A DNA stretch of 16,422 bases from positions 1-16,422 of the IMG/VR virus record IMGVR_UViG_2877285697_000001; one strand, given 5' to 3'. Below are positions 1 through 16,422 of this stretch, one piece after another. The notes under the pieces were generated by a model. The model did not search any database, was not told the origin of the DNA, and saw nothing but the letters and a program-made list of their open reading frames with translations. A program made the translations under genes and the position numbers. How positions within the stretch are numbered: the stretch's first letter is position 1; the number at the start of each line of letters is the position of its first letter. This DNA comes from a virus (Duplodnaviria; Heunggongvirae; Uroviricota; Caudoviricetes).

Positions 1-303
1 TTAACGCGTATTTTTCAGCGACTCCTGTGCAAAATACGCTGTTGCTTTTTTTAATATATCTCGCTCAAGGCGAGCTTCATTTAACGCCTTACGCAGTTGC
101 AGAATTTCAGATTCCAGTTCAGCCACCGTGCGGGAACCAGGAGTACCGAGCCCTTTTCTGGCGGCGGTAACCCATTGTCCTAAAGTGCCTTCAGGAAGGG
201 ATAATCGGGAAGCGCCTTCACTGATCGAAAGTTGATTTTCAAGAACCGTTCTGACAGCTTCGGCTTTGAACTCTTTAGAGTAACGTTGGGTTTTTCTGCT
301 CAT
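1..303 (-). CDS. IS600 OrfA, IS3-family transposase HTH subunit (100 aa)
   Basis: Six-frame ORF MSRKTQRYSKEFKAEAVRTVLENQLSISEGASRLS..., recognised as IS600/IS3-family OrfA; second copy at 4473-4775. Confidence 0.9.
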   Translation of the reverse strand: MSRKTQRYSKEFKAEAVRTVLENQLSISEGASRLSLPEGTLGQWVTAARKGLGTPGSRTVAELESEILQLRKALNEARLERDILKKATAYFAQESLKNTR

Positions 304-367
304 TATTAGCTCCTTCTGATGCCATTCTATTTCAGGAAGGAGTGTCCGTTAAACTCAGGCTACCTCA
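1..367 (-). mobile_element. IS600 (IS3 family) copy, cut by the window start; its orfA-proximal terminus ends at 367
   Basis: 351-367 AAACTCAGGCTACCTCA is the reverse complement of the left terminus TGAGGTAGCCTGAGTTT of the complete copy at 4409; orfA is identical apart from one residue. Confidence 0.85.
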
Positions 368-535
368 GGTGATATCACCACTATCCAGTCGTTACGCCAT
401 ACCTCCGATCTTGATACCGGAGAGATGTATGTCTTCCTGTGTAAGGTTGAAGCCTGGGCGATGAATATTGGTTGCCATCTGACTATTCCGCAGAGCTGCG
501 AGTTCCAGCAGCTCCGCGACAAGCAGGAGGCGTAA
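368..535 (+). pseudogene. 3' fragment of the lambdoid nin-region gene preceding ninE (ybcN-like by synteny only); 5' part removed by IS600
   Basis: Open frame runs from the IS600 terminus at 367 to TAA at 533-535, which overlaps the ninE ATG; no start codon inside the window. Confidence 0.45.
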
Positions 536-705
536 TGGCTACACCGCTTATTCGTGTCATGAACGGACACATCTACAGAGTACCAAATCGTCGTAAGCGT
601 AAGCCTGAGCTGAAGCCATCCGAAATACCAACACTGCTCGGATATACCGCCAGCCTGGTTGATAAAAAATGGTTGCGACTGGCAGCAAGGAGGAGTCATG
701 GCTGA
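535..705 (+). CDS. ninE: NinE (56 aa)
   Basis: [56 protein letters not shown]; ATG at 535 inside the longer track ORF 472-705; DLP12 ninE by recollection and synteny. Confidence 0.8.
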   Translation: MATPLIRVMNGHIYRVPNRRKRKPELKPSEIPTLLGYTASLVDKKWLRLAARRSHG

Positions 706-988
706 TTTGAGAAAAGCAGCGCGTGGTCGGGAATGCCAGGTAAGAATCCCTGGCGTATGTAATGGCAACCCTGAAACGTCTGTACTGGCACATATTTGGC
801 TGGCTGGATTGTGCGGCACCGGTATTAAACCGCCAGACCTGATTGCCACCATTGCATGTTCTGCCTGTCACGATGAGATCGACCGTCGCACGAATTTTGT
901 TGACGCTGGATATGCAAAAGAATGCGCGCTGGAAGGTCTGGCGAGAACACAGGTTATCTGGCTGAAAGAGGGGGTTATTAAGGCGTGA
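698..988 (+). CDS. ybcO: YbcO, DUF1364-type putative nuclease (96 aa)
   Basis: ATG at 698 preceded by AGGAGG (688-693); [30 protein letters not shown]...; overlaps ninE stop. Confidence 0.8.
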
Positions 989-1347
989 ATACCTACAGCA
1001 TCACACTACCCTGGCCGCCGAGCAATAACCGCTACTACCGCCATAATCGAGGGCGCACGCACATCAGCGCAGAAGGGCAGGCATACCGCGATAACGTCGC
1101 CCGAATCATTAAAGGCTCAATGCTGGATATCGGTCTGGCTATGCCTGTGAAAATCCGCATTGAGTGCTACATGCCGGATCGCCGTCGCCGTGACCTGGAT
1201 AATCTACAAAAAGCCTCTTTTGATGCACTCACCAAAGCAGGTTTCTGGCTGGATGATGCTCAGGTCGTTGATTACCGCGTTGTGAAGATGCCGGTTGTCA
1301 AAGGTGGAAAGCTGGAACTGACCATCACTGAACTGGGAGATGAATGA
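985..1347 (+). CDS. rusA: RusA Holliday-junction resolvase (120 aa), GTG start overlapping ybcO stop
   Basis: [26 protein letters not shown]...[14 protein letters not shown], near-identical to recalled E. coli K-12 RusA. Confidence 0.9.
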
Positions 1348-1484
1348 TGTTTGAGTTTTATATGGCAGAACTTCTTCGCCACCGCTGGATGCGCCTGCGC
1401 TTATATCGTTTCCCCAGTTCTGTTTTGACCGATTACCGAATACTGAGGAATTACGCCAAAACCCTGACAGGAGCAGGAGTATGA
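1344..1484 (+). CDS. ylcG: Small protein YlcG (46 aa), below the ORF-track size cutoff
   Basis: ATGATG at 1344 overlapping the rusA stop; translation [46 protein letters not shown], stop TGA 1482-1484. Confidence 0.55.
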
Positions 1485-1569
1485 AGTCAGAGATAACAAT
1501 CAACTAATACTGTTTTGTTGATTTTTGCTTGTAATTGGCGTTCTGGTCTGATTTTTGTGGAGTAAGTTG

Positions 1570-1953
1570 ATGCGTGATATTCAGATGGTTCTTGAGCGTT
1601 GGGGAGCGTGGGCGGCTAATAATCATGAAGATGTGACCTGGTCGTCCATTGCCGCCGGTTTTAAGGGATTAATTCCTTCAAAAGTAAAATCTCGCCCGCA
1701 ATGTTGTGACGATGACGCGATGATCATTTGCGGGTGCATGGCCCGTCTGAAAAAGAACAACAGCGATTTGCACGATTTATTAGTAGATTATTATGTAGTC
1801 GGTATGACATTCATGTCACTGGCAGGTAAGCATTGCTGCTCTGATGGTTATATCGGGAAAAGGTTACAGAAGGCTGAGGGCATAATTGAAGGGATGTTAA
1901 TGGCATTAGATATTCGGTTAGAGATGGATATCGTTGTTAATAACTCTAATTAA
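1570..1953 (+). CDS. quuD: Late-gene antiterminator Q (127 aa)
   Basis: [34 protein letters not shown]... from ATG 1570; the track ORF begins at an upstream TTG at 1555. Confidence 0.85.
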
Positions 1954-1969
1954 TATGCCAATTGTTTAC

Positions 1970-2004
1970 TAAAAATTATTAAAAATGGGGCGTTGCAACG
2001 CCCC
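1970..2004 (-). terminator. Candidate intrinsic terminator for the minus-strand porin transcript
   Basis: Perfect palindrome GGGGCGTTGCAACGCCCC (1987-2004); on the minus strand it is followed by a T-rich run (complement of 1970-1986). Confidence 0.4.
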
Positions 2005-2141
2005 CAAAAATAAAGGGTAATATATAACAGAAGGTTTATATAGTTAGAAGCAAGGTTGTGCTCCTAAAGGAAGTGGCTTGAGGGAGCCACTTATATGTTG
2101 GGGAGGCAAAGCCTCCCGCAACATATCTTTTAGTAATCAAA

Positions 2142-3224
2142 TTAGAACTGGTAAACCATACCTACAGCAACGATATCATCGGTAGCAACGCCAGATGCTT
2201 TCGTGAAATCGCTCTTATCAATCAGGTTGATTTTGTAATCAACAAAAGTGGACATATTTTTGTTGAAGTAATAGGTTGCACCTACATCAATATATTCAAC
2301 CAGGTCCTGATCACCCCACGCACCCAAGTCTTTTCCTTTAGATTGCAGGTAAGCAACGGACGGACGCAGACCGAAGTCGAACTGATATTGTGCAACTACT
2401 TCGAAGTTTTGTGCTTTGTTGGCAATATGGTTATTACCAAAAACAGTCATGTTCTGGGTTTCAGAATAGGTGGTAGCCAGATAGATGTTGTTCGCATCAT
2501 ATTTCAGACCAGCTGCCCATACTTCAGCATTTTGACCAGATGCATTCAGGCTGTTGTTACCGTAGATAACCTGATTATTAGTGCGGTCAGATTTAGCATA
2601 GGTTGCACCTACACCGAATCCTTCATACTCATAAGTAGTGGAGAAACCGAAACCATCACCATTAGCTTCAGTTACGTCAGTGCGGTCATTTTTACCCTGA
2701 TACTGAGCAGCAAAGTTCAGACCATCAACCAGACCAAAGAAGTCGTTGTTACGATAAGTTGCAACACCAGTGGTGCGACCAGTCATGAACACATCTGTTT
2801 GGCTCCAGGTATCGCCACCGAATTCTGGCAGAACGTCAGTCCACGCACCGATGTCATATGCTACACCGTAGTTACGGCCGTAATCGATTGAGCCGTAGTC
2901 CCCGAATTTCAGGCCTGCAAATGCAAGACGGGTTTTGTCTTTGGAGGAGCCTTGAGATTCAGCGCGGTTACCTTTGAATTCATATTCCCACTGACCGAAA
3001 CCAGTCAGTTGATCGTTGATTTGGGTTTCACCTTTGAAGCCAAGACGGGCATAAGTAGTATCACCATCATCTGCATCATTAGAGGAGAAGTAGTGCTTGG
3101 CATTAACTTTCCCGTACAGATCCAGCTTGTTACTGTCTTTATTATAAATTTCAGCTGCCTGAGCAGACATCGCCATCAGTACTGATGCAGCTACAGCAGA
3201 AATTGCCACTGTTAATTTTTTCAT
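2142..3224 (-). CDS. nmpC: Outer-membrane general porin NmpC (OmpC/OmpF/OmpD family), intact 360 aa with signal peptide
   Basis: [23 protein letters not shown] signal peptide, porin repeats, C-terminal ...VGMVYQF; sits between Q and holin as in DLP12. Confidence 0.9.
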
Positions 3225-3812
3225 CGTGAGCCCTTTTTTTTGAACTATTATTAAAAAATGATGTCACTGCGCGATAAATATTCATCTAATCAATGTGATT
3301 ATTTCAAGATGTAAGTTTTAGTTTCTCATTTAATTTGTGAAGTAGATCTCTATTTTTATCTGAACTTTTTCTATCGAAACCTATTTATGGCTCTTATTTG
3401 AACAAAAATAAACCTATTAGCTAATTTATATTAATGGCTGTTATTTATGGGGGTTCTATAATTCGGTGGTTTAATTTAAATCAACTAAAAATAACGCCGG
3501 AAATTATTTATTGGTTATTTGTTGAGGTTTTCTTATGTATTTGTGGTGGTGTTTTGAACACTCGGTAGCATTCTCATAAATATCATTCAGTGGTTTACGT
3601 ACGTAAAAAATTGGTTATGCTGTTAAGAGTGGTTACTTCGTCACGCAGCTTAAACCCGCCGTCGAGCTGGTTTTTCCATTTTTTGAGTCTCGATATTAGC
3701 TGATAACTCAATACCTGAGTTATTCACTGACTCCGAGTCTGTTACGTTTCTGCTTTTTTGCGATACGTTGTATTCCCTCAATTTACACCCGCTTTGTCTG
3801 CGAGGTGGGGTT

Positions 3813-4028
3813 ATGAAATCCATGGATAAGTTAACAACGGGTGTCGCCTATGGCACCTCAGCAGGTAGTGCCGGTTACTGGTTTTTACAGCTGCTCGATA
3901 AAGTCACGCCCTCACAGTGGGCAGCAATAGGTGTGCTGGGTAGCCTGGTATTTGGCCTGCTGACGTACCTGACAAACCTTTATTTCAAGATTAAAGAAGA
4001 TAAGCGCAAGGCTGCGAGAGGTGAATAA
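3813..4028 (+). CDS. essD: Holin EssD (71 aa)
   Basis: [71 protein letters not shown] from ATG 3813. Confidence 0.8.
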
Positions 4029-4408
4029 TGCCTCCATCATTACGAAAAGCCGTTGCTGCTGCTATTGGTGGCGGAGCAATTGCTATAGCATCAGTGTTAA
4101 TCACTGGCCCAGGTGGTAACGATGGTCTGGAAGGTGTCAGCTACATACCATACAAAGATATTGTTGGTGTATGGACTGTATGTCACGGGCATACAGGAAA
4201 AGACATCATGCTCGGTAAAACGTATACCAAAGCAGAATGCAAAGCCCTCCTGAATAAAGACCTTGCCACGGTCGCCAGACAAATTAACCCGTACATAAAA
4301 GTTGATATACCGGAAACAACGCGCGGCGCTCTTTACTCGTTCGTTTACAACGTGGGCGCTGGCAATTTCAGAACATCGACACTTCTTCGCAAAATAAACC
4401 AGGGCGAT
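4028..4408 (+). pseudogene. rrrD: Endolysin (lysozyme) RrrD, 3'-truncated by IS600 after residue 127
   Basis: [28 protein letters not shown]...; frame stops at TGA 4409-4411 formed by the IS600 terminus TGAGG; recalled K-12 RrrD is about 165 aa. Confidence 0.85.
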
Positions 4409-4472
4409 TGAGGTAGCCTGAGTTTAACGGACACTCCTTCCTGAAATAGAATGGCATCAGAAGGAGCTAATA

Positions 4473-4775
4473 ATGAGCAGAAAAACCCAACGTTACTCTA
4501 AAGAGTTCAAAGCCGAAGCTGTCAGAACGGTTCTTGAAAATCAACTTTCGATCAGTGAAGGCGCTTCCCGATTATCCCTTCCTGAAGGCACTTTAGGACA
4601 ATGGGTTACCGCCGCCAGAAAAGGGCTCGGTACTCCTGGTTCCCACACGGTGGCTGAACTGGAATCTGAAATTCTGCAACTGCGTAAGGCGTTAAATGAA
4701 GCTCGCCTTGAGCGAGATATATTAAAAAAAGCAACAGCGTATTTTGCACAGGAGTCGCTGAAAAATACGCGTTAA
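4473..4775 (+). CDS. IS600 OrfA
   Basis: 100-aa ORF; differs from the copy at 1-303 by one residue (H58 versus R58). Confidence 0.9.
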   Translation: MSRKTQRYSKEFKAEAVRTVLENQLSISEGASRLSLPEGTLGQWVTAARKGLGTPGSHTVAELESEILQLRKALNEARLERDILKKATAYFAQESLKNTR

Positions 4776-4810
4776 TCGAACAATGGCGACAACAATTTCC
4801 CATTGAAGCG

Positions 4811-5629
4811 ATGTGTCAGGTATTTGGTGTATCCAGGAGCGGTTATTACAACTGGGTACAGCATGAACCCTCAGACAGAAAACAAAGTGATGAGCGGCTA
4901 AAACTGGAGATTAAGGTGGCACATATCCGCACTCGCGAAACATATGGAACCCGGCGGCTCCAGACGGAGCTGGCAGAGAATGGCATCATCGTTGGTCGTG
5001 ACCGGCTGGCACGTCTTCGTAAGGAGCTAAGGCTACGCTGTAAGCAGAAACGCAAGTTCAGAGCGACTACGAACCCGAACCACAATCTGCCAGTTGCGCC
5101 AAATCTGCTGAACCAGACGTTCGCTCCTACAGCACCAAATCAGGTCTGGGTGGCGGACCTGACGTATGTTGCCACACAGGAGGGATGGTTGTACCTCGCT
5201 GGCATCAAAGATGTTTATACGTGCGAAATTGTCGGCTACGCCATGGGAGAGCGCATGACAAAAGAGCTGACAGGTAAAGCCCTGTTTATGGCGCTCAGGA
5301 GCCAGCGCCCACCTGCCGGGCTAATCCACCACTCTGATCGAGGTTCACAGTACTGCGCATACGATTACCGGGTCATACAGGAGCAGTCTGGTCTGAAAAC
5401 ATCAATGTCGCGTAAAGGTAACTGTTACGACAACGCTCCGATGGAAAGCTTCTGGGGAACGCTGAAAAATGAGAGCCTGAGCCACTATCGTTTTAATAAC
5501 CGGGATGAAGCCATCTCAGTAATACGGGAATACATTGAGATTTTCTACAATCGTCAGCGTCGTCACTCTCGTCTGGGGAATATCTCCCCGGCAGCCTTCA
5601 GGGAAAAATATCATCAGATGGCTGCTTAA
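4811..5629 (+). CDS. IS600 OrfB, DDE transposase catalytic subunit (made as OrfAB by -1 frameshift)
   Basis: 272-aa ORF with rve-type DDE motifs (...HSDRGSQY...NAPMESFWGTLK...), frame -1 relative to orfA. Confidence 0.9.
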   Translation: MCQVFGVSRSGYYNWVQHEPSDRKQSDERLKLEIKVAHIRTRETYGTRRLQTELAENGIIVGRDRLARLRKELRLRCKQKRKFRATTNPNHNLPVAPNLLNQTFAPTAPNQVWVADLTYVATQEGWLYLAGIKDVYTCEIVGYAMGERMTKELTGKALFMALRSQRPPAGLIHHSDRGSQYCAYDYRVIQEQSGLKTSMSRKGNCYDNAPMESFWGTLKNESLSHYRFNNRDEAISVIREYIEIFYNRQRRHSRLGNISPAAFREKYHQMAA

Positions 5630-5766
5630 AAAAAGAACAAATGGTAGTGTCCGCTATTGCCAGTACACCTCAACCGGTTACGACATCAACCAGGTCTTTG
5701 GTTTCATAACCGAGATATGTGTGTTTGAGAGCATCTTTGTAGTGGTCAACAAAAACTGGCCACCGA

Positions 5767-6915
<1,149 letters not shown>

Positions 6916-6971
6916 TATGGCACCTGTGTTGTTCTGAGGTGAGCATATCACCTCTGTTCAGGTGGCCAAAT

Positions 6972-7619
6972 TCAGTAAACCACTTCAACCCCTTCATACA
7001 ACATATCAAGACGCTCAACAATCAATCCTGTTGGAGGTTCCATTTTTAGAACGAGGGCAAACTCTCCTGGCCCACGTCGTATTGTTATACGCGGGCCGGT
7101 ACACTCCACATCCCAATTGTCTGATTTAGCTTTCCATTCATTTTCATCTATCAGTAAAGTCTCCTTACCAATAGAATTATAGAAAATTCCTGATAAAAGC
7201 ATCGGTCCATGTGGTATGGGTGAAGGTTTCACAGAAAGAATGGGTTGTTCGTTGACTACAATCAAATTTTGACAGTTATGAAACGTCACTCCTGCAAATT
7301 TTACTGTTATAGGCTCATTATGAAAATCAAACATTTCATTTGCAAAACCAGCCTGTAAGCACTTGGGATTTCTGTCAGCTATTTCCACTGTCTGTGCTGA
7401 AAGTCTACCACGAGCTCTTTTTTGATTGTATTGGGAGCAAAGAAGTGTCATTCCATTCGGATCATGTACTTTGGCATCAACGAAGTCAGGTTTAAAATGC
7501 TCATAATCATAAAATCCAAATCCACAAATTACACAGCCAAAGCCGCACCTTTGCCTTATCTGACGTTTTATTGTCTCAGGTATTCTTCTTGAGAGCCCGT
7601 GTTTATTAATATTGTCCAT
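6972..7619 (-). CDS. HNH-endonuclease-like domain protein (215 aa); the last five codons and stop lie inside the IS911 terminus
   Basis: N-terminal CGFGCVICG...YEHFKP...DPNGMTLLCSQYNQKRA resembles an HNH (His-Me finger) motif; C-terminal 140 aa unassigned; IS911 end at 6987 overlaps the 3' end. Confidence 0.5.
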   Translation of the reverse strand: MDNINKHGLSRRIPETIKRQIRQRCGFGCVICGFGFYDYEHFKPDFVDAKVHDPNGMTLLCSQYNQKRARGRLSAQTVEIADRNPKCLQAGFANEMFDFHNEPITVKFAGVTFHNCQNLIVVNEQPILSVKPSPIPHGPMLLSGIFYNSIGKETLLIDENEWKAKSDNWDVECTGPRITIRRGPGEFALVLKMEPPTGLIVERLDMLYEGVEVVY

Positions 7620-7749
7620 ATGGTTAGTACGCTATAAGTTTGTTTCTATAATTTTACCACAATAGATAAGTTTGTATCAGAAATCGCTATATGGAGTGAG
7701 CGGAATATTTATATTATTCATGCAATTGCTCTCCCGTACGCAGCCCGCA

Positions 7750-7775
7750 CTTCCGTCATCGCAGAATGACGGAAG
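7750..7775. other. Perfect 10-bp stem hairpin CTTCCGTCAT-cgcaga-ATGACGGAAG
   Basis: Exact inverted repeat 19 bp downstream of the stop of minus-strand gene 7794-8117; no T-run on either strand. Confidence 0.5.
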
Positions 7776-7793
7776 CCTTACTAACTGGCGCCT

Positions 7794-8117
7794 TTATTGA
7801 AACAGATTCTGAGGTAAATGCGGCAATACTCGACTCCACTTATCATCCTGCCACGGCTGAAGTTTTACATGTGCCGTTTCTCGGACGAGGATTGCTCGCG
7901 CTCTGTTGAGTATCTGGGGATATTCTTGCTCGATGGAAGTGAAGTGACCAGCTTCACCATGCTCCGCATCCTGAAGAAGATGAGTAACGTTCTGGTAGGC
8001 AATTAACATCACATTCCCTGCTCGCCATAACCAGGCGAGTGTGCAAAGTTCGTTATCAGTGAATTGTTTTGTGATTGGGGATTGTTGAACTGCTAGAACG
8101 AGAACGCCAGCATCCAT
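7794..8117 (-). CDS. Hypothetical protein (107 aa), no family recognised
   Basis: ATG (complement of 8115-8117) preceded by AGGGA Shine-Dalgarno on the minus strand; co-directional with flanking genes. Confidence 0.45.
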   Translation of the reverse strand: MDAGVLVLAVQQSPITKQFTDNELCTLAWLWRAGNVMLIAYQNVTHLLQDAEHGEAGHFTSIEQEYPQILNRARAILVRETAHVKLQPWQDDKWSRVLPHLPQNLFQ

Positions 8118-8228
8118 TGGCAGTCCCTATAGTAAAACCATAGCTCAGGACGCTTCGTTCAGGATAGATAATTTTATTGTACTTACCTAACTTTCTTACT
8201 ATAGCACGGTTGAAAAAGTGATTATTAC

Positions 8229-8832
8229 TCAAAAATAAACCTCACCATCAACCATATATTTGAGAGTACTTATCGCCTGCTGGGCGGATATTGTTTTCAT
8301 TAAAGGATAGTGTTTAAAAACAATGCCATTCATAAAATAGATATCACAGGTTTTATTATCTGTATTGATTATGATTTTTTCGAATGTTTTATAGGCAAGT
8401 GTACGACATAGCTCTCGCCCATTTTTACTGGTTAAGTCAATAGCATGAAAATCACCAAGTGAGCTCACCGCTTTACTCTTCAAAGTTTTTAATGATACAG
8501 AAGCCCTTCGTAATTCCTTATCTAATACTCTGATTTTTTCTGCTATAGCGGTAACTTCAGGCGCAACAGATAATGCAGCAATTAAATTATTAATTTTCAT
8601 ATGGAGCTCAATAATTTTCAACTCTAAAGTTTCATTAGCATCTTTCTTGTTTTCAACTGGTTGGATTTTACTACAATTAAAAAGCAACTCATTAATGATA
8701 TTATAATCAACCAAATCTCTCTTTATTGATGGCCTGCCACATCGATGCAGTCTTCTCATCGGACAAACATAATAGCCATGCAAACTTCCAGATACCGCCT
8801 GAACAATCATGGTATTACCACAAGCCTCGCAC
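8229..8832 (-). pseudogene. C-terminal fragment of a large serine recombinase (zinc beta-ribbon plus coiled-coil), N-terminal catalytic part replaced by IS1
   Basis: PCEACGNTMIVQAVSGSLHGYYVCPMRRLHRCGRP matches the recombinase zinc-ribbon pattern C-x2-C...YYxC...C, followed by coiled-coil-like LELKIIELHMKINNLIAAL...; frame is open into the IS1 end at 8833 with no ATG. Confidence 0.55.
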
Positions 8833-8887
8833 GGTAATGCTGCCAACTTACTGATTTAGTGTATGATGGTGATTTTAAGGTGCTTGC

Positions 8888-9163
8888 GTGGCTTCCATTT
8901 CCATCAGATGTCCTTCCTGCTCCGCTACTGAAGGCGTGGTGCGTAACGGCAAAAGCACTGCCGGACATCAGCGCTATCTCTGCTCTCATTGCCGTAAAAC
9001 ATGGCAACTACAGTTCACTTACACCGCCTCTCAGCCCGGTACGCACCAGAAAATCATTGATATGGCCATGAATGGCGTCGGATGTCGCGCCAGTGCACGC
9101 ATTATGGGCGTTGGCCTCAACACGGTTTTACGTCACTTAAAAAACTCAGGCCGCAGTCGGTAA
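8888..9163 (+). CDS. insA: IS1 InsA (91 aa)
   Basis: [66 protein letters not shown]... Confidence 0.95.
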
Positions 9164-9585
9164 CCTCGCGCATACAACCGGGCAGTGATGTGATTGTCTG
9201 CGCTGAAATGGACGAACAGTGGGGCTACGTCGGTGCTAAATCACGTCAGCGCTGGCTGTTTTACGCGTATGACAGGATACGGAGGACGGTTGTGGCGCAC
9301 GTCTTCGGTGAACGCACTCTGGCCACACTGGAGCGTCTTCTGAGCCTGCTGTCGGCCTTTGAGGTCGTGGTATGGATGACGGATGGCTGGCCGCTGTATG
9401 AATCACGCCTGAAGGGAAAGCTGCACGTTATCAGCAAGCGTTACACTCAGCGCATTGAGCGACATAATCTGAATCTGAGACAACATCTGGCAAGGCTGGG
9501 ACGGAAGTCACTGTCGTTCTCAAAATCGGTGGAGCTGCATGACAAGGTCATCGGGCATTATCTGAACATAAAACACTATCAGTAA
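9082..9585 (+). CDS. insB: IS1 InsB reading frame (expressed as InsAB' by frameshift)
   Basis: 167-aa ORF ...[65 protein letters not shown]. Confidence 0.9.
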
Positions 9586-9694
9586 GTTGGAGTCATTACC
9601 GAGAACGATTTATCACCGCAGTCGGGCTAAATCCGCTAGTCTGTTGGTATGTAAGTGGTTGCATAGTCATTGCCTTATCAGTTAACGCCGCAGT

Positions 9695-9922
9695 TTAGGC
9701 GGCAGAATTACTCGCGTTAAACAATGGTGCGAGGTCGGGACGAATATCTGCTGGTTTAATCTTTCCACCAGTGGCTGAGACAATTTTCATTACATAGCGG
9801 GCATCAATTCCGCCACCGTGTAGCCAACGCCAAACTGTGGGTTGGGCTACACCGCATAGATCTGCCAGTCGTTTTTGACTACCTGTAATACTGATTGCGA
9901 GTTGAATGGTTTGATTTGTCAT
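9695..9922 (-). CDS. Cro-like HTH regulator (75 aa)
   Basis: MTNQTIQLAISITGSQKRLADLCGVAQPTVWRWLHGG... HTH; ATG (complement of 9920-9922) with AGGA 9 nt upstream; divergent from the repressor gene. Confidence 0.7.
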   Translation of the reverse strand: MTNQTIQLAISITGSQKRLADLCGVAQPTVWRWLHGGGIDARYVMKIVSATGGKIKPADIRPDLAPLFNASNSAA

Positions 9923-10032
9923 TATCAATTCCTGTTGGTATTGCAATGAATGAATAATAGCAATGCGTATTAATCCAAGCAATAGCAAAACGTGTTTTGA
10001 CCATCAATACGCAAGCGTATAAATTAAAACTT
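9923..10032. promoter_or_regulatory. Divergent immunity control region (pR-like and pRM-like promoters with operator dyads)
   Basis: Minus-strand promoter: -35 TTGCTT (complement of 9977-9982), 17-bp spacer, -10 TATTAT (complement of 9954-9959). Dyads AATAGCAATGCGTATT (9956-9971) and ATACGCAAGCGTAT (10007-10020). TATAAA (10017-10022) lies 10 nt before the cI ATG. Confidence 0.45.
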
Positions 10033-10725
10033 ATGAAAAAAGAAACTCTTGCTGATCGCTTAAACCTAGCGATGGAACAATCTGGAATGTCTCAAGGCGC
10101 TCTTGCAAAGGCGTCTGGCGTAGCTCAACCCACAATCTGGAGACTGACAAGCGGCAACGCGCGCGGCTCAACAAAAATTGTTGAAATAGCTAATGCATTG
10201 GGGGTTCGAACAGAATGGCTCTCATCAGGCATAGGCCCGATGAGAAATGACGGTCAACAATCAGGGAAGCCTGCTGTCAGCCATTCAAAATACTTCAAGA
10301 TTGACGTTCTTGATATAGAAGTCAGTGCCGGGCCGGGTGTAATCAACCGTGAGTTTGTAGAAGTTCTACGCTCGGTTGAGTACTCGTTTGACGATGCTCG
10401 TCACATGTTCGATGGCAGGAAGGCGGAAAATATCCGCATCATTAACGTGCGTGGTGACAGCATGTCAGGAACGATCGAACCAGGTGATCTTCTGTTCGTT
10501 GATATCACGGTTAAATCTTTCGACGGTGATGGTATCTATGCGTTTCTGTATGACGACACAGCCCATGTAAAGCGCCTGCAAATGATGAAGGATAAGCTGC
10601 TGGTTATCTCTGATAACAAGAGCTACTCACCGTGGGACCCGATCGAGAAAGACGAGATGAACCGGGTATTCATCTTCGGGAAAGTCATCGGAAGCATGCC
10701 GCAGACGTATAGGAAGCATGGGTAG
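10033..10725 (+). CDS. CI-like prophage repressor, N-terminal HTH plus C-terminal S24 (LexA-like) autopeptidase (230 aa)
   Basis: MKKETLADRLNLAMEQSGMSQGALAKASGVAQPTIWRL... HTH; C-terminal ...RGDSMSGTIEPGDLLFVD...HVKRLQ... Ser/Lys dyad motifs; ATG 10033 chosen inside track ORF 9997-10725. Confidence 0.85.
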   Translation: MKKETLADRLNLAMEQSGMSQGALAKASGVAQPTIWRLTSGNARGSTKIVEIANALGVRTEWLSSGIGPMRNDGQQSGKPAVSHSKYFKIDVLDIEVSAGPGVINREFVEVLRSVEYSFDDARHMFDGRKAENIRIINVRGDSMSGTIEPGDLLFVDITVKSFDGDGIYAFLYDDTAHVKRLQMMKDKLLVISDNKSYSPWDPIEKDEMNRVFIFGKVIGSMPQTYRKHG

Positions 10726-10836
10726 TGAAGGACGTGTCAACTCTATTTTGTAAGCTATCCAGACTCACAGTTGCAGATCGACGAGTAACTTACATACAGC
10801 ACAAAAAAACAATATGCGCGTGCTTTTAGACTAGAC

Positions 10837-10851
10837 TTACCATAATGGTAA
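10837..10851. promoter_or_regulatory. Perfect 15-bp palindrome TTACCATAATGGTAA overlapping the first ATG of the toxin gene
   Basis: Exact dyad symmetry (7-1-7) read directly from the sequence. Confidence 0.35.
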
Positions 10852-11255
10852 CAAGTATGATTCTTAGCAGATATGTGGGAACTCCTCCCCGTGATGGCGA
10901 GGACAGAAAGATTCAAGGTGGTCCGCTTTATTTAGATATCATTGATTTGATTGATGAATGTGACACACTGCCTTGGACCAGACGGTGTATCAGGGATGTT
11001 CAATCGCTTTCTTTAGATGCAGATGACATCAAATCTATGGTGATAAAAGCAGTCACTAAAGGGAGATTTCTAGGTTCAGAATGGTGTCAAGGCAGTAAAC
11101 CAGGTGTATGGGCAGCTTGTGATGCTTATAGCTTTGAGCACTCATTTTGGTGCCAAGCTATGCATAAAGAACTTAATAACGAGTTCTACATTAAATTTTT
11201 TGTAAACATTACTGGCAATGTAGTGCTTACAGTATCTCTTCATCTCTCTAATTGA
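10845..11255 (+). CDS. MqsR-like toxin (putative mRNA interferase); start may instead be ATG 10857
   Basis: Blocks shared with recalled E. coli MqsR: ...TRR...LSLD, DDIKSM (MqsR SDFYKSM), EFYIKFFVNITGNVVLTVSL (MqsR QVYLKITVIHDVLIVSF); toxin gene precedes antitoxin as in mqsRA. Confidence 0.6.
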   Translation: MVTSMILSRYVGTPPRDGEDRKIQGGPLYLDIIDLIDECDTLPWTRRCIRDVQSLSLDADDIKSMVIKAVTKGRFLGSEWCQGSKPGVWAACDAYSFEHSFWCQAMHKELNNEFYIKFFVNITGNVVLTVSLHLSN

Positions 11256-11279
11256 GTGATGATAAATGAGGATTTTTAT

Positions 11280-11867
11280 ATGAGAAACAACAACATATGT
11301 CCAGTTTGTGGTGTAGGTCATCTCACCGTGGAGATGGAGTATGATGATGTTACTTATAAAGGGGAAACAAAAAATCTCCCAATAAGGTTTTCTGTGTGTG
11401 ATCAATGTGGTTCGGAAACTGCCACACCAGTCGATTTACGAGAAAACAAACGAATTTTCAATGAATACAAAAAGTCTATCGATGGACTTTTAACAGGAAA
11501 AGAATTAAAAAAAATTAGAACTGAAGTATGGATGATAACCCAGCAAAAGGCATCCTCTATATTTGGTGGGGGGCCTAAGGCATTTTCCAAGTATGAATCT
11601 GATGATGTCATTCAATCAGAAGCAATGGATAAACTGATGCGTTTAGCAGCAGAAGTTCCTGATGCATTCAAAAGGTTACGGGAATTATCTGGCGAAATCA
11701 AAGTTGAAAGAACAGTCTCATCATCTAAATCTTTACCTATATGGAAATCTGAAGCAAAAGCACAATTTGAAAACGATGATCAGGGATTTGACAGCAAATC
11801 ACCAGCCCAAACAAAAATGAATCAAACATCAATAAAGATAAAAACTGTTGCTAAGCGGGTAGCATGA
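11280..11867 (+). CDS. MqsA-like antitoxin (zinc-ribbon plus XRE-type HTH) with about 60-aa C-terminal extension (195 aa)
   Basis: MRNNNICPVCGVGHL...CDQCGSE zinc ribbon; LTGKELKKIRTEVWMITQQKASSIFGGGPKAFSKYE matches the recalled MqsA HTH block (IFGGGVNAFSRYE); GAGGA 7 nt upstream of ATG 11280; canonical MqsA is about 131 aa. Confidence 0.75.
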   Translation: MRNNNICPVCGVGHLTVEMEYDDVTYKGETKNLPIRFSVCDQCGSETATPVDLRENKRIFNEYKKSIDGLLTGKELKKIRTEVWMITQQKASSIFGGGPKAFSKYESDDVIQSEAMDKLMRLAAEVPDAFKRLRELSGEIKVERTVSSSKSLPIWKSEAKAQFENDDQGFDSKSPAQTKMNQTSIKIKTVAKRVA

Positions 11868-12367
11868 TGAATGAACTTCTTAGATCAGCAATAGACGCAT
11901 TATCAATAATGCATATCAATATCAGAGAATCTAACTTTGCTTTTTCTGAAGGGTATAATAGCTTTAACTTCAACAGCATAAATAAGCAAACACAATCATT
12001 TCGTAAGATAAAAAAAATCGAAGCTATTGAATTAGTAAGTGACGATGACTCATTAAAAAATGAGCTATATTACTCTTTTCACTACTCAGTTGGGCTTAGA
12101 TTTATTGCAAAATCCGAAGAAACATCTAAAGACGAAAATGATGTTGATACAATTTTTTCTATAGAAGCAATTTTTGAGGCGATATATCGCTCAAAGAGAG
12201 AATTATCTAAAGAAGAGTTAGAAGAATTTGCTAAGCAAAATGTAGGTTTTAATGTATGGCCTTTTTGGCGAGAGTATGTTCAAAACAGCACATCCAGAAT
12301 GGGAATTACTACAATAGCTATACCATTCTTTAAATTCAATAAATCAGACATACCTTCATTAGATTAA
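11864..12367 (+). CDS. SecB-like chaperone (167 aa), translationally coupled to the antitoxin (ATGA overlap)
   Basis: N-terminal LSIMHINIRESNFAFS versus SecB FQIQRIYTKDISFEAP; C-terminal TIFSIEAIF and NVWPFWREYVQNSTSRMG...IPFFKF versus SecB GGIFSIAGIE and NILFPYARECITSMVSRG...APVNF (E. coli SecB from recollection). Confidence 0.55.
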   Translation: MMNELLRSAIDALSIMHINIRESNFAFSEGYNSFNFNSINKQTQSFRKIKKIEAIELVSDDDSLKNELYYSFHYSVGLRFIAKSEETSKDENDVDTIFSIEAIFEAIYRSKRELSKEELEEFAKQNVGFNVWPFWREYVQNSTSRMGITTIAIPFFKFNKSDIPSLD

Positions 12368-12381
12368 ATTCAAATATAACT

Positions 12382-12408
12382 CCCGGCTACCGTGCCGGGT
12401 TTTCTTTT
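12382..12408 (+). terminator. Rho-independent terminator ending the repressor/TAC transcription unit
   Basis: CCCGGC-taccgt-GCCGGG stem-loop followed by TTTTCTTTT, 15 nt after the chaperone stop. Confidence 0.65.
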
Positions 12409-12549
12409 GTCCCCTCCCCTCATCACACACCGTTCAAAAAACCACCACGACCTCACTTCAGTTATCGCTATGCGATGCAAGTCACAAAATTAATTCTTTT
12501 TGCTATCAAACATTTAATATCAAAACACATCAACTAATAGCAGTGAGTA

Positions 12550-12578
12550 TTGGTATCACCAATAGCAATAGCTATTAT
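12550..12578 (+). promoter_or_regulatory. pL-like promoter with embedded operator dyads, reading toward gam-bet-exo
   Basis: -35 TTGGTA (12550-12555), 17-bp spacer, -10 TATTAT (12573-12578); dyads TTGGT-atc-ACCAA (12550-12562) and AATAGC-aata-GCTATT (12561-12576); the latter resembles the oR dyad at 9956-9971 and overlaps the -10 in the same way. Confidence 0.45.
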
Positions 12579-12771
12579 CACCATATCGCAACAACACAAC
12601 GATACGGCAACCACCTGATTCACCGTTGCGATGACCGCTTAGATCCGCAGCTTGAATTTCAGCAGGCTTCGGGGAGTGCGAGGGATGAAACGGACGCGTG
12701 AACGTCGGTGTGACCAGCTGAAATCAACTCAACATTTCATACCTTAGTCGCTTCAACGAGGCGGCTTAGTT

Positions 12772-13062
12772 ATGACAACCGGCGGCCATCCACCGCCTGA
12801 ATACGCGCAGAAGTCTTTATATGTTCAGCAGCCCAGCTTACGGGCAGGAGTTTTTATGGTTCATCAACATTACGGAACGCAGACCGTTAATCGCGGTGCG
12901 GTCATGCCAGGAATGCTGGTCAAACGCAAAGATGGTACCTGGACTGCATCAGCTAATTTACGCGGACGACTTTATCTGCATCGCGGCATTGAGCGCACTT
13001 ATACCCGTGACTTGCTCGTGGAAGTTTTTCTCGACGGACGCGGCAACGGTCTGAATCACTAA
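12772..13062 (+). CDS. Hypothetical protein in the kil position (start uncertain: 12772, 12856 or 12904)
   Basis: ORF ends at TAA 13060-13062 inside the TCACTAA motif that I recall as the lambda kil stop overlapping the long gam leader; protein unlike lambda Kil. Confidence 0.4.
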   Translation: MTTGGHPPPEYAQKSLYVQQPSLRAGVFMVHQHYGTQTVNRGAVMPGMLVKRKDGTWTASANLRGRLYLHRGIERTYTRDLLVEVFLDGRGNGLNH

Positions 13063-13137
13063 TCCCCTTTCCTGTTTTCCGAATCAGCCTGGCATTCCGC
13101 GGGCGATTTTTTCACAGCCATTTTCAGGAGTTCAGCC

Positions 13138-13434
13138 ATGAACGCTTATTACATTCAGGATCGTCTTGAGGCTCAGAGCTGGGCGCGTCACTACCAGCAG
13201 ATCGCCCGTGAAGAGAAAGAGGCAGAACTGGCAGACGACATGGAAAAAGGCCTGCCCCAGCACCTGTTTGAATCGCTATGCATCGATCATTTGCAACGCC
13301 ACGGGGCCAGCAAAAAAGCCATTACCCGTGCGTTTGATGACGATGTTGAGTTTCAGGAGCGCATGGCAGAACACATCCGGTACATGGTTGAAACCATTGC
13401 TCACCATCAGGTTGATATTGATTCAGAGGTATAA
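13138..13434 (+). CDS. gam: Gam (short form GamS, 98 aa), RecBCD inhibitor
   Basis: [56 protein letters not shown]..., near-identical to recalled lambda Gam; AGGAG 7 nt upstream. Confidence 0.9.
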
Positions 13435-13439
13435 AACGG

Positions 13440-14225
13440 ATGAGTACAGCACTCGCAACGCTGGCTGGGAAGCTGGCTGAACGTGTCGGCATGGATTCTG
13501 TCGACCCACAGGAACTGATCACCACTCTTCGCCAGACGGCATTTAAAGGCGATGCCAGCGATGCGCAGTTCATCGCATTGTTGATCGTCGCCAACCAGTA
13601 CGGCCTTAATCCGTGGACGAAAGAAATTTACGCCTTCCCTGACAAGCAGAACGGCATCGTTCCGGTGGTGGGCGTTGATGGCTGGTCCCGTATCATCAAT
13701 GAAAACCAGCAGTTTGATGGCATGGACTTTGAGCAGGACAATGAATCCTGCACATGCCGGATTTACCGCAAGGACCGTAATCATCCGATCTGCGTTACCG
13801 AGTGGATGGATGAATGCCGCCGCGAACCATTCAAAACCCGCGAAGGCAGAGAAATCACGGGGCCGTGGCAGTCGCATCCCAAACGGATGTTACGTCATAA
13901 AGCCATGATTCAGTGTGCCCGTCTGGCCTTCGGATTTGCTGGTATCTATGACAAGGATGAAGCCGAGCGCATTGTCGAAAATACCGCATACACTGCAGAA
14001 CGTCAGCCGGAACGCGACATCACTCCGGTTAACGATGAAACCATGCAGGAGATTAACACTCTGCTGATTGCCCTGGATAAAAAATGGGATGACGACTTAT
14101 TGCCGCTCTGTTCCCAGATATTTCGCCGCGACATTCGCGCATCGTCAGAACTGACACAGGTCGAAGCAGTGAAAGCTCTCGGATTCCTGAAACAGAAAGC
14201 CACTGAGCAGAAGGTGGCAGCATGA
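13440..14225 (+). CDS. bet: Bet (Red-beta) single-strand annealing protein (261 aa)
   Basis: [72 protein letters not shown]..., near-identical to recalled lambda Bet. Confidence 0.95.
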
Positions 14226-14902
14226 CACCGGACATTATCCTGCAGCGTACCGGGATCGATGTGAGAGCTGTCGAACAGGGGGATGATGCGTGGCACAAAT
14301 TACGGCTCGGCGTCATCACCGCTTCAGAAGTTCACAACGTGATAGCAAAACCCCGCTCCGGAAAGAAGTGGCCTGACATGAAAATGTCCTACTTCCACAC
14401 CCTGCTTGCCGAGGTTTGCACCGGTGTGGCTCCGGAAGTTAACGCTAAAGCACTGGCCTGGGGAAAACAGTACGAGAACGACGCCAGAACCCTGTTTGAG
14501 TTCACTTCCGGCGTGAATGTTATTGAATCCCCGATCATCTATCGCGACGAAAGTATGCGCACCGCCTGCTCTCCCGATGGTTTATGCAGTGATGGCAACG
14601 GCCTTGAACTGAAATGCCCGTTTACCTCCCGGGATTTCATGAAGTTCCGGCTCGGTGGTTTCGAGGCCATAAAATCGGCTTACATGGCCCAGGTGCAGTA
14701 CAGCATGTGGGTGGCACGAAAAGATGCCTGGTACTTTGCCAACTATGACCCGCGGATGAAGCGTGAAGGCCTGCATTATGTCGTGATTGAGCAGGATGAA
14801 AAGTACATGGCGAGTTTTGACGAGATGGTGCCGGAGTTCATCGAAAAAATGGACGAGGCACTGGCTGAAATTGGTTTTGTATTTGGGGAGCAATGGCGAT
14901 GA
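14222..14902 (+). CDS. exo: Exo (Red-alpha) 5'-3' exonuclease (226 aa)
   Basis: [68 protein letters not shown]...; ATGA overlap with bet as in lambda. Confidence 0.95.
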
Positions 14903-15081
14903 AGCATCCTCACGATAATATCCGGGTAGGCGCGATCACTTTCGTCTACTCCGTTACAAAGCGAGGCTGGGTATTTCCCGGCCTTTCTGTTACCCGAAAT
15001 CCCCTGAAAGCACAGCGGCTGGCTGAGGAGATAAATAATAAACGGGGAGCTGTATGCACAAAGCATCTCCTGTTGAGTTAA
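14893..15081 (+). CDS. Lambda orf60a-like small protein (62 aa)
   Basis: [33 protein letters not shown]..., position immediately after exo as in lambda. Confidence 0.65.
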
Positions 15082-15245
15082 GAACGAGCATTGAGATGGC
15101 ACATAGCCTCGCTCAAATTGGAGTCAGGTTTGTGCCAATACCAGTAGAAACAGACGAAGAATTTCATACGTTAGCCGCATCCCTTTCACAAAAGCTGGAA
15201 ATGATGGTGGCGAAAGCAGAAGCAGATGAGAGAGACCAGGTATGA
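15054..15245 (+). CDS. Lambda orf63-like small protein (63 aa)
   Basis: Track [66 protein letters not shown]; position and size as lambda orf63. Confidence 0.55.
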   Translation: MHKASPVELRTSIEMAHSLAQIGVRFVPIPVETDEEFHTLAASLSQKLEMMVAKAEADERDQV

Positions 15246-15321
15246 CAACCACTGAATGCATTTTTCTGGTAGCGGGCTTCATATTCTGTGTGCTTATGCT
15301 TGCCGACATGGGACTTGTTCA

Positions 15322-15537
15322 ATGACACCTCAGCAAGAAAACGCCCTTCGCAGTATTGCCCGTCAGGCTAATTCTGAAATCAAAAAAGCCAGACAGCAGT
15401 TTCCGGATAAAAACGTCGATGACATTTGCCGTAGCGTACTGAAGAAGCACCGCGAAACGGTAACGCTGATGGGATTCACACCGACTCATTTAAGCCTGGC
15501 GATCGGCATGTTAAACGGCGTCTTTAAGGAACGGTGA
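15322..15537 (+). CDS. Lambda orf61-like small protein
   Basis: MTPQQENALRSIARQANSEIKKARQQFPDKNVDDICRSVLKKHRETVTLMGFTPTHLSLAIGMLNGVFKER from ATG 15322 inside track ORF 15256-15537. Confidence 0.55.
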   Translation: MTPQQENALRSIARQANSEIKKARQQFPDKNVDDICRSVLKKHRETVTLMGFTPTHLSLAIGMLNGVFKER

Positions 15538-15559
15538 GCATGAAAAACAAAATCATCAT

Positions 15560-15583
15560 GGAGCTACAGGCTCCTTTTTTATT
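15560..15583 (+). terminator. Candidate intrinsic terminator after the orf61-like gene
   Basis: GGAGC-tacag-GCTCC followed by TTTTTTATT. Confidence 0.45.
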
Positions 15584-15635
15584 ATTCGCATTCACCCTCA
15601 AGCGTATTAACCAACAATTCAGGGATTAATGAAAG

Positions 15636-15669
15636 ATGGCAGACATCATTGATTCAGCATCAGAAATTG
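15636..15669 (+). pseudogene. 5' stub (MADIIDSASEI...) of a gene interrupted by IS1; by position possibly the lambda ea22 equivalent
   Basis: ATG at 15636, 11 codons, then the frame enters the IS1 left end at 15670. Confidence 0.3.
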
Positions 15670-15724
15670 GGTAATGCTGCCAACTTACTGATTTAGTGTA
15701 TGATGGTGATTTTAAGGTGCTTGC

Positions 15725-16000
15725 GTGGCTTCCATTTCCATCAGATGTCCTTCCTGCTCCGCTACTGAAGGCGTGGTGCGTAACGGCAAAAGCACTGCCG
15801 GACATCAGCGCTATCTCTGCTCTCATTGCCGTAAAACATGGCAACTACAGTTCACTTACACCGCCTCTCAGCCCGGTACGCACCAGAAAATCATTGATAT
15901 GGCCATGAATGGCGTCGGATGTCGCGCCAGTGCACGCATTATGGGCGTTGGCCTCAACACGGTTTTACGTCACTTAAAAAACTCAGGCCGCAGTCGGTAA
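15725..16000 (+). CDS. insA: IS1 InsA
   Basis: Identical 91-aa translation to 8888-9163. Confidence 0.95.
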
Positions 16001-16422
16001 CCTCGCGCATACAACCGGGCAGTGATGTGATTGTCTGCGCTGAAATGGACGAACAGTGGGGCTACGTCGGTGCTAAATCACGTCAGCGCTGGCTGTTTTA
16101 CGCGTATGACAGGATACGGAGGACGGTTGTGGCGCACGTCTTCGGTGAACGCACTCTGGCCACACTGGAGCGTCTTCTGAGCCTGCTGTCGGCCTTTGAG
16201 GTCGTGGTATGGATGACGGATGGCTGGCCGCTGTATGAATCACGCCTGAAGGGAAAGCTGCACGTTATCAGCAAGCGTTACACTCAGCGCATTGAGCGAC
16301 ATAATCTGAATCTGAGACAACATCTGGCAAGGCTGGGACGGAAGTCACTGTCGTTCTCAAAATCGGTGGAGCTGCATGACAAGGTCATCGGGCATTATCT
16401 GAACATAAAACACTATCAGTAA
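15919..16422 (+). CDS. insB: IS1 InsB reading frame
   Basis: Identical 167-aa translation to 9082-9585; stop TAA at the window end. Confidence 0.9.

Follow-up and report, generated by a model that had tools for sequence, protein, structure and literature searches.

The stretch of DNA analysed here (16,422 nt; IMG/VR record IMGVR_UViG_2877285697_000001, a member of the Caudoviricetes; hereafter the window) contains two copies of the insertion sequence (IS) IS1 in the same orientation, between which lie a lambdoid immunity region, a three-gene candidate toxin–antitoxin–chaperone (TAC) cassette and the Red recombination genes gam, bet and exo. A preliminary description of the sequence had taken this IS1-bounded block to be a potentially mobilisable composite unit. 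We reach a different reading, in which we have high confidence: the locus, next to dsdX in a Shigella chromosome, is a defective lambdoid prophage that was eroded in place, and the direct IS1 copies are independent deletion scars that bracket its surviving early-left region. The source chromosome could be located, as window positions 4222-16422 are identical at 12,201 of 12,201 positions to a locus (L010) of CP026827.1, part of an assembly (GCA_002949935.1) that is labelled Shigella dysenteriae and whose genomic cluster is that of S. boydii (PMC10501659). Below, positions to the right of the window that are called window-equivalent continue its numbering into CP026827.1.

Collinearity with IS1-free phages and one deletion per IS1

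The DNA between the two IS1 copies (9601-15669; 6,069 bp) forms one uninterrupted alignment to the functional temperate phage PhiR70_1 (PV340577.1) at 99.0% identity and is also unbroken in four IS1-free E. coli prophages (98.5-98.7% identity). The genes of PhiR70_1 follow one another without interruption in the order rusA-ybcO-ninE-ybcN-ybcM-ybcL-ybcK-(ylcJ)-emrE-ren-P-O-cII-cro and then cI, the three cassette genes and kil-gam-bet-exo-orf60a-orf63-orf61-traR-xis-int, and both sides of IS1 copy 1 fall on this map: window 8190-8832 corresponds to positions 3290-3934 of the PhiR70_1 locus (L016) and window 9601-15669 to positions 8001-14069. Copy 1 stands in place of the 4,066 bp of PhiR70_1 between them, with the loss of the 5' part of ybcK, ylcJ, emrE, ren, P, O and nearly all of the gene in the cII position. 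Comparison with the prophage of E. coli NT1F10 (L002) gives matching breakpoints and 4,067 missing bp, and the junction sequences are clean to the single base.

The right-hand side was read against two E. coli prophages adjacent to dsdC (L007 and L012). Copy 2 replaces 375 bp (L007 11449-11823) that hold the remainder of traR and a spacer. To the right of the window, CP026827.1 continues with the last 15 nt of copy 2, then with 719 bp that carry a 200-aa minus-strand gene and have kept their native orientation, and then with a third, inverted IS1, which replaces about 1.9 kb (L007 12543-14453) comprising the prophage end and all but ~29 nt of dsdC. Past this copy lie dsdX, dsdA, emrYK and evgAS. 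The D-serine deaminase operon has thereby lost the gene of its activator, dsdC, but still has dsdX and dsdA.

Outside both IS1 copies the same phage map continues, with order and orientation kept, minus one deletion per IS1. Because a transposed segment would not recreate such collinearity with its outer flanks, this argues that the block was not delivered by composite transposition. The remnant is without replication genes (O, P and the origin inside O), traR-xis-int and late genes, and it still has an intact repressor/operator region along with the cassette and the Red genes; divergent cro and cI, followed by kil-gam-bet-exo in pL orientation, mark it as a lambdoid early-left and immunity region.

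The IS1 copies, their flanks and the search for a second context

The preliminary description was right about the elements themselves and where they lie, namely two IS1 copies in the same orientation with identical insA and insB translations. Direct comparison finds no mismatch over the 753 nt of copy 2 that lie in the window (8833-9585 against 15670-16422), with a similarity that ends precisely at the left ends of both copies and a start-to-start spacing of 6,837 bp. The window stops 15 nt before the end of copy 2, which in CP026827.1 is whole and identical to copy 1 at 768 of 768 nt. A repeat finder returned a single direct repeat family (8833-9132 and 15670-15969) together with the IS1 terminal inverted repeats (8832-8855 and 9578-9601), which are imperfect and about 23 bp long (left repeat, IRL, GGTAATGCTGCCAACTTACTGAT; right repeat, IRR, as reverse complement, GGTAATGACTCCAACTTACTGAT). 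InsA has zinc ribbon and helix-turn-helix (HTH) domains (PF03811, PF12759), the transposase matches DDE_Tnp_IS1 (PF03400, E=1e-74), and an A6C motif at IS1 nt 307-313 allows a -1 frameshift to join insA and insB', so that a 232-aa InsAB' can be reconstructed. Both outer ends of the candidate unit, the IRL of copy 1 and the IRR of copy 2, are intact.

We compared all left and right flanks of the three IS1 copies in every pairing, for lengths of 7-14 bp and in both direct and inverted sense, and no pairing contains a target duplication. At the level of the proposed unit, the outer flanks GCCTCGCAC and AAGCTTGCC differ by 4-11 mismatches for k=7-14, and the 8-9 bp duplication of a simple IS1 insertion is present at none of the three copies (0/3). 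The repeats of 8-9 bp that the preliminary description had suggested looking for outside the IS1 pair are thus absent over the wider range of 7-14 bp, the right flank being taken from CP026827.1. Nor does each IS1 have an independent duplication, which that description had named as a finding that would refute a composite origin; what adjoins them instead is a separate deletion at each, of 4,066 bp at copy 1 and 375 bp at copy 2, and it is because a deletion adjoins each copy that none has a duplication of its own.

The IS1-bounded block, which the same description had proposed to look for in other genomes and plasmids, turned up in no other context. No record of the PLSDB plasmid collection contains at least 80% of it; 160-nt queries across both inner junctions are covered in full in none of 5,426 complete E. 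coli genomes among the matches listed (a slight undercount, ~370 records); and exact matches to 32-34-nt junction patterns number 0 in GTDB representative genomes and 0 in JGI metagenomes. The Shigella population was sampled through exact-protein look-ups. These place the truncated YbcK protein left by copy 1 on five contigs only, the CP026827.1 chromosome and four short-read contigs of 1.9 kb, and a 215-aa neighbour protein on the source chromosome, on IS-bounded short-read contigs of ~1.9-2.0 kb and on one further contig of >1 Mb, the short-read contigs numbering four or five over the two look-ups. Among the contigs displayed for these two proteins no deletion or amplification variant of the block is visible. 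The junctions of copy 1 and copy 2 are private to one Shigella lineage.

A direct pair of IS1 copies some 6 kb apart is what chance leads one to expect in a Shigella chromosome. Reference chromosomes of Shigella carry 229-348 IS, of which 46-73% are IS1, and share a common set of IS1, IS2, IS4, IS600 and IS911 (PMC7373316). These figures imply ~105-254 copies of IS1 in ~4.5 Mb, or a mean spacing of 18-43 kb; by our own calculation from these literature ranges, and not from an IS1 map of CP026827.1, random placement would give 7-14% of IS1 copies a neighbour in the same orientation no more than 6 kb away on a given side, or ~7-36 such pairs per genome. In the 27-kb neighbourhood of the window alone there are three copies of IS1, two of IS600 and an IS911-like remnant. 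We also considered the complete identity of copies 1 and 2 as a sign of paired origin and rejected it: the third, inverted copy differs from the others by only 1 nt (G-to-A at nt 2 of its IRL). The near-identity of the IS1 copies reflects a recent lineage-wide IS1 burst, not paired origin.

Origin of the IS1-bracketed structure

In the account that we favour, the immunity region, cassette and Red genes would have stood at their native position within a prophage, in a chromosome with the IS expansion typical of Shigella, and three separate IS1-associated events would then have removed neighbouring phage DNA: 4,066 bp at copy 1, 375 bp including most of traR at copy 2, and ~1.9 kb with the prophage end and dsdC at the third copy. 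Each event may have been a one-ended adjacent deletion mediated by IS1 through intramolecular transposition, which is a classical IS1 activity, or a RecA-dependent homologous recombination between a pair of IS1 copies that had inserted earlier. Either mechanism would leave one IS1 with unrelated flanks, and the two are not distinguishable from the sequences of CP026827.1 and the window; which of them acted, and in what order the events took place, we can only infer.

Several points weigh against erosion in place. The ybcK part and the cro-side part may not have belonged to one prophage in the strain's ancestor; the relatives at the dsdC site, L007 and L012, differ from the window in their immunity region and are without ybcK; an IS600 joins the left end of the locus to glk; and no genome representing an intermediate turned up, for instance an IS1 in ybcK with its own 9-bp duplication, Shigella being covered via the exact-protein look-ups. 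Given the differences of L007 and L012 and the glk junction, copy 1 could stem from an IS1 x IS1 exchange that involved two different lambdoid prophages, in which homologous recombination joined a DLP12-like element (ybcK, nin and lysis genes) to a dsdC-site element (immunity region and Red genes); copy 1 would then be the trace of a rearrangement, not of an internal deletion. In keeping with such an exchange, L007 and L012 share with the window only the kil-to-traR segment and the 200-aa gene and have lambda-type cro, cII and ninB, and the join to glk through an IS600 shows that large rearrangements took place at this locus; rearrangement rates in Shigella are reported to be high. We nevertheless consider it unlikely, since the join would have recreated exactly the gene order and orientation of single phages (PhiR70_1 and eight prophages) and since lambdoid mosaicism accounts for the differences of L007 and L012 without any rearrangement.

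Far less probable still, to the point that we give it almost no credence, is the insertion of the 7.6-kb IS1-block-IS1 unit in one piece, as a Tn9-like composite transposon acting through the IRL of copy 1 and the IRR of copy 2. Composite transposons with direct IS1 repeats do exist: Tn9 consists of cat between direct IS1 repeats and Tn1681 of the STa toxin gene between inverted IS1, both being classical examples. The window resembles them in that two complete IS1 bracket a cargo, in direct orientation as in Tn9, and the two copies are intact and identical, both outer ends being complete and InsAB' open to reconstruction. It differs from them in that the 9-bp duplication is missing (as is any of 7-14 bp at the outer flanks), in that the unit is found nowhere else, and in that cargo and surroundings are collinear: the ybcK fragment and 200-aa gene of the outer flanks, and the cII remnant and traR 5' end at the inner ends, are ordered and oriented as in IS1-free phages. 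At 7.6 kb the unit is also ~3x the size of Tn9, and transposition of IS1 composites reportedly drops steeply with length. What survives of the composite-unit proposal is therefore the anatomy, a direct pair of intact IS1; the composite origin does not, for want of a target duplication and of a second context and in view of the collinear flanks.

Erosion in place, by comparison, makes the structure one of an already-known kind, the IS1 scars of Shigella genome decay, with an anatomy of the Tn9 type but neither a unit-level duplication nor an independent context. As in other cases of IS1-driven decay, intact IS1 copies stand at clean deletion breakpoints without target duplications, many IS1, IS600 and IS911 copies lie within a few kb, and phage replication, integration and late genes have been lost together with a neighbouring host gene (dsdC); nothing substantive sets the window apart, its specific junctions being private to one lineage. 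Relative to PhiR70_1 and the DLP12-type prophages, it shares the syntenic 6,069-bp block and has ybcK, nin, Q, porin and lysis genes of the same type; the window copy differs in having lost cII-O-P-ren-emrE, traR-xis-int and the late genes and in carrying IS1, IS600 and IS911 insertions and an inversion.

Gene content, the cassette and the fate of the remnant

Of the genes that the preliminary description had listed between the IS1 copies, cro, cI and gam-bet-exo are confirmed by family searches and gene calls, and at the place of its TAC cassette stand a 136-aa open reading frame, an MqsA-family antitoxin gene and a SecB-like candidate; all are collected with the IS1 copies and the neighbouring gene fragments in Table 1. 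The exact Exo protein of the window is present in 853 blocks of the collection that we searched.

Table 1. IS1 copies, their flanks, and the genes and gene fragments that they enclose or adjoin. Positions are those of the window except where another locus is named.
Feature	Position	Strand	Description and basis
IS1 copy 1	8833-9600	+	complete, 768 bp; IRL/IRR, insA, A6C frameshift site 9139-9145, insB'; no target-site duplication
IS1 copy 2	15670-16422	+	first 753 of 768 nt; end at window-equivalent 16437 in CP026827.1; no target-site duplication; replaces 375 bp
Third IS1	L010 12936-13703 (window-equivalent 17157-17924)	inverted	719 bp right of copy 2
9-mers flanking copy 1			left GCCTCGCAC; right GAGAACGAT
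9-mers flanking copy 2			left CAGAAATTG; right AAGCTTGCC
3' fragment of ybcK (phage large serine recombinase)	8229..8832	-	C-terminal ~201 of 508 aa, truncated by copy 1; Pfam Zn_ribbon_recom; aligns with ybcK of PhiR70_1 (L016 3290-3934) and of L002 (99.1%)
cII-position gene (ydaT-type)	9601..9616	-	only first ~16 nt left; window 9601 = L016 8001; L016 cII coding sequence 7525-8016
cro-position repressor	9695..9922	-	YdaS-type HTH, 75 aa; Pfam PF15943; gene call in L010
cI repressor	10033..10725	+	HTH_3 + Peptidase_S24, 230 aa; Pfam, gene table
136-aa open reading frame (ORF)	10845..11255	+	first of the three cassette genes, where a toxin would stand; matches no family
MqsA-family antitoxin	11280..11867	+	PF15731 E=2e-17; TIGR03830 E=7e-33, above cutoff
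SecB-like chaperone candidate	11864..12367	+	Pfam SecB E=0.008, below cutoff
kil (KilR-type FtsZ inhibitor)	12856..13062	+	gene table, family profiles
gam	13138..13434	+	PF06064 E=3e-65
bet (RecT family)	13440..14225	+	PF03837; RefSeq name 'Bet'
exo (YqaJ / lambda exonuclease)	14222..14902	+	PF09588
orf60a (DUF1317), orf63 (DUF1382) and orf61 homologues	14899..15537	+	gene table, PhiR70_1 annotation
traR/dksA-like gene	15636..15669	+	first ~34 nt, cut by copy 2; H91-H95 annotation; L001 traR 15037-15258, match ends at 15070; junction sequence

The second gene of the cassette is assigned to the MqsA family and to the type II antitoxins by an NCBIfam profile (TIGR03830, 113 bits against a cutoff of 61.8), and its product has a C-terminal extension of ~60 aa beyond the MqsA profile. 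The third gene is SecB-like: its Pfam SecB score is weak (16.5 bits against a cutoff of 26), its best match in the PDB, also weak (E=0.011), is the TAC chaperone Rv1957 of M. tuberculosis, and a homologue is labelled 'protein-export chaperone SecB' in RefSeq. The 136-aa product of the first gene has no match in Pfam, NCBIfam, PHROGs or PDB sequences. An identical SecB-like protein occurs in 2,414 blocks of the collection (exact-protein look-up). All 9 of the other loci displayed with it lie within lambdoid prophages, at ybhC, icd or mlrA attachment sites; 8 of the 9 have the region from ybcK to cro intact upstream, and none (0/9) has a flanking IS1. The cassette has spread inside intact lambdoid phages, not through IS1.

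The slot between cI and kil that the cassette occupies (window 10726-12855, the rexAB position) is a variable cargo site among otherwise near-identical prophages (L001-L012, H7-H40). Besides the MqsA/SecB-like cassette of the window, its contents are RexA/RexB (L004), DUF6414 (L006), a 353-aa protein with ASCH (L003, L002), ImmA/IrrE with DUF4411 (H11-H23), a PP2C phosphatase with a Ser/Thr kinase (H9), DUF3037 (H25-H33) or a DGQHR protein (H57, H58). In five E. coli prophages that carry the same cassette at ybhC, the lambda attB site (L017, L018, L019, L022 and L026), Gam and a tyrosine integrase are joined in one 386-aa ORF at 11275-12435 (Pfam Gam, Arm-DNA-bind_1 and Phage_integrase), which suggests that a deletion running from gam to int took out bet, exo and xis; cI is shortened to 161 aa in four of the five, L019 being the exception.

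Other insertion sequences have reshaped the left part of the window. Two IS600 copies, whose inverted arms (1-367 and 4409-4775) are 100% complementary, bracket the segment ybcN'-ninE-ybcO-rusA-ylcG-Q-porin-holin-lysozyme' (368-4408), which is inverted relative to ybcK and cro. The IS600 regions extend over window 1-367 and 4409-5672; window 368 corresponds to L016 1005 and window 5673-5738 to L016 1003-1068, and this 3-bp overlap, the IS600 target duplication split by the inversion, shows that recombination between the two IS600 copies turned the segment round. On its far side the left IS600 abuts glk, which points to a further large deletion or rearrangement that took away the late genes. 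The porin gene of this segment (OmpC/NmpC-type, window 2142-3224, minus strand) is intact, encodes 360 aa and lies between Q and the holin gene of the prophage remnant. An IS3-family element (IS911/ISEc52-like, window 5739-6951, minus strand) directly adjoins the IS600 and cuts short the phage gene on its right; its orfA is intact (6613-6951) and its transposase frame is broken (5918-6586 and 5768-5917).

What may become of the IS1-bracketed interval was also addressed by the preliminary description, which saw in IS1-IS1 deletion, amplification or transposition a route for loss or horizontal spread. It is well established that RecA can act on intact IS1 copies in direct repeat to give a deletion or a duplication; in principle such a pair can also transpose as a composite of the Tn9 type. 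The route is physically possible, but it is generic and no evidence speaks for it here; this includes Tn9-like movement via the IRL of copy 1 and the IRR of copy 2. That the 7.6-kb segment functions as a Tn9-like composite transposon, or as a translocatable circle formed through IS1, and is able in this Shigella lineage to carry the repressor, the toxin–antitoxin–chaperone cassette and the Red genes to plasmids such as pINV, seems to us highly improbable; if true, the cassette would gain an IS-based route of dissemination independent of phage particles. The most probable future event is not spread but loss of the 6.8-kb interval by IS1-IS1 homologous recombination, from which the excised circle would have no replication origin.

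The importance of these results lies mainly in correct annotation: unless it has target duplications or occurs in a second context, an IS-flanked block should not be annotated as a composite transposon. The window shows IS-driven prophage decay in Shigella in textbook form, with the cassette and the Red genes stranded in one strain's remnant, from which replication, integration and packaging genes are gone, while elsewhere they travel inside intact lambdoid phages such as PhiR70_1.

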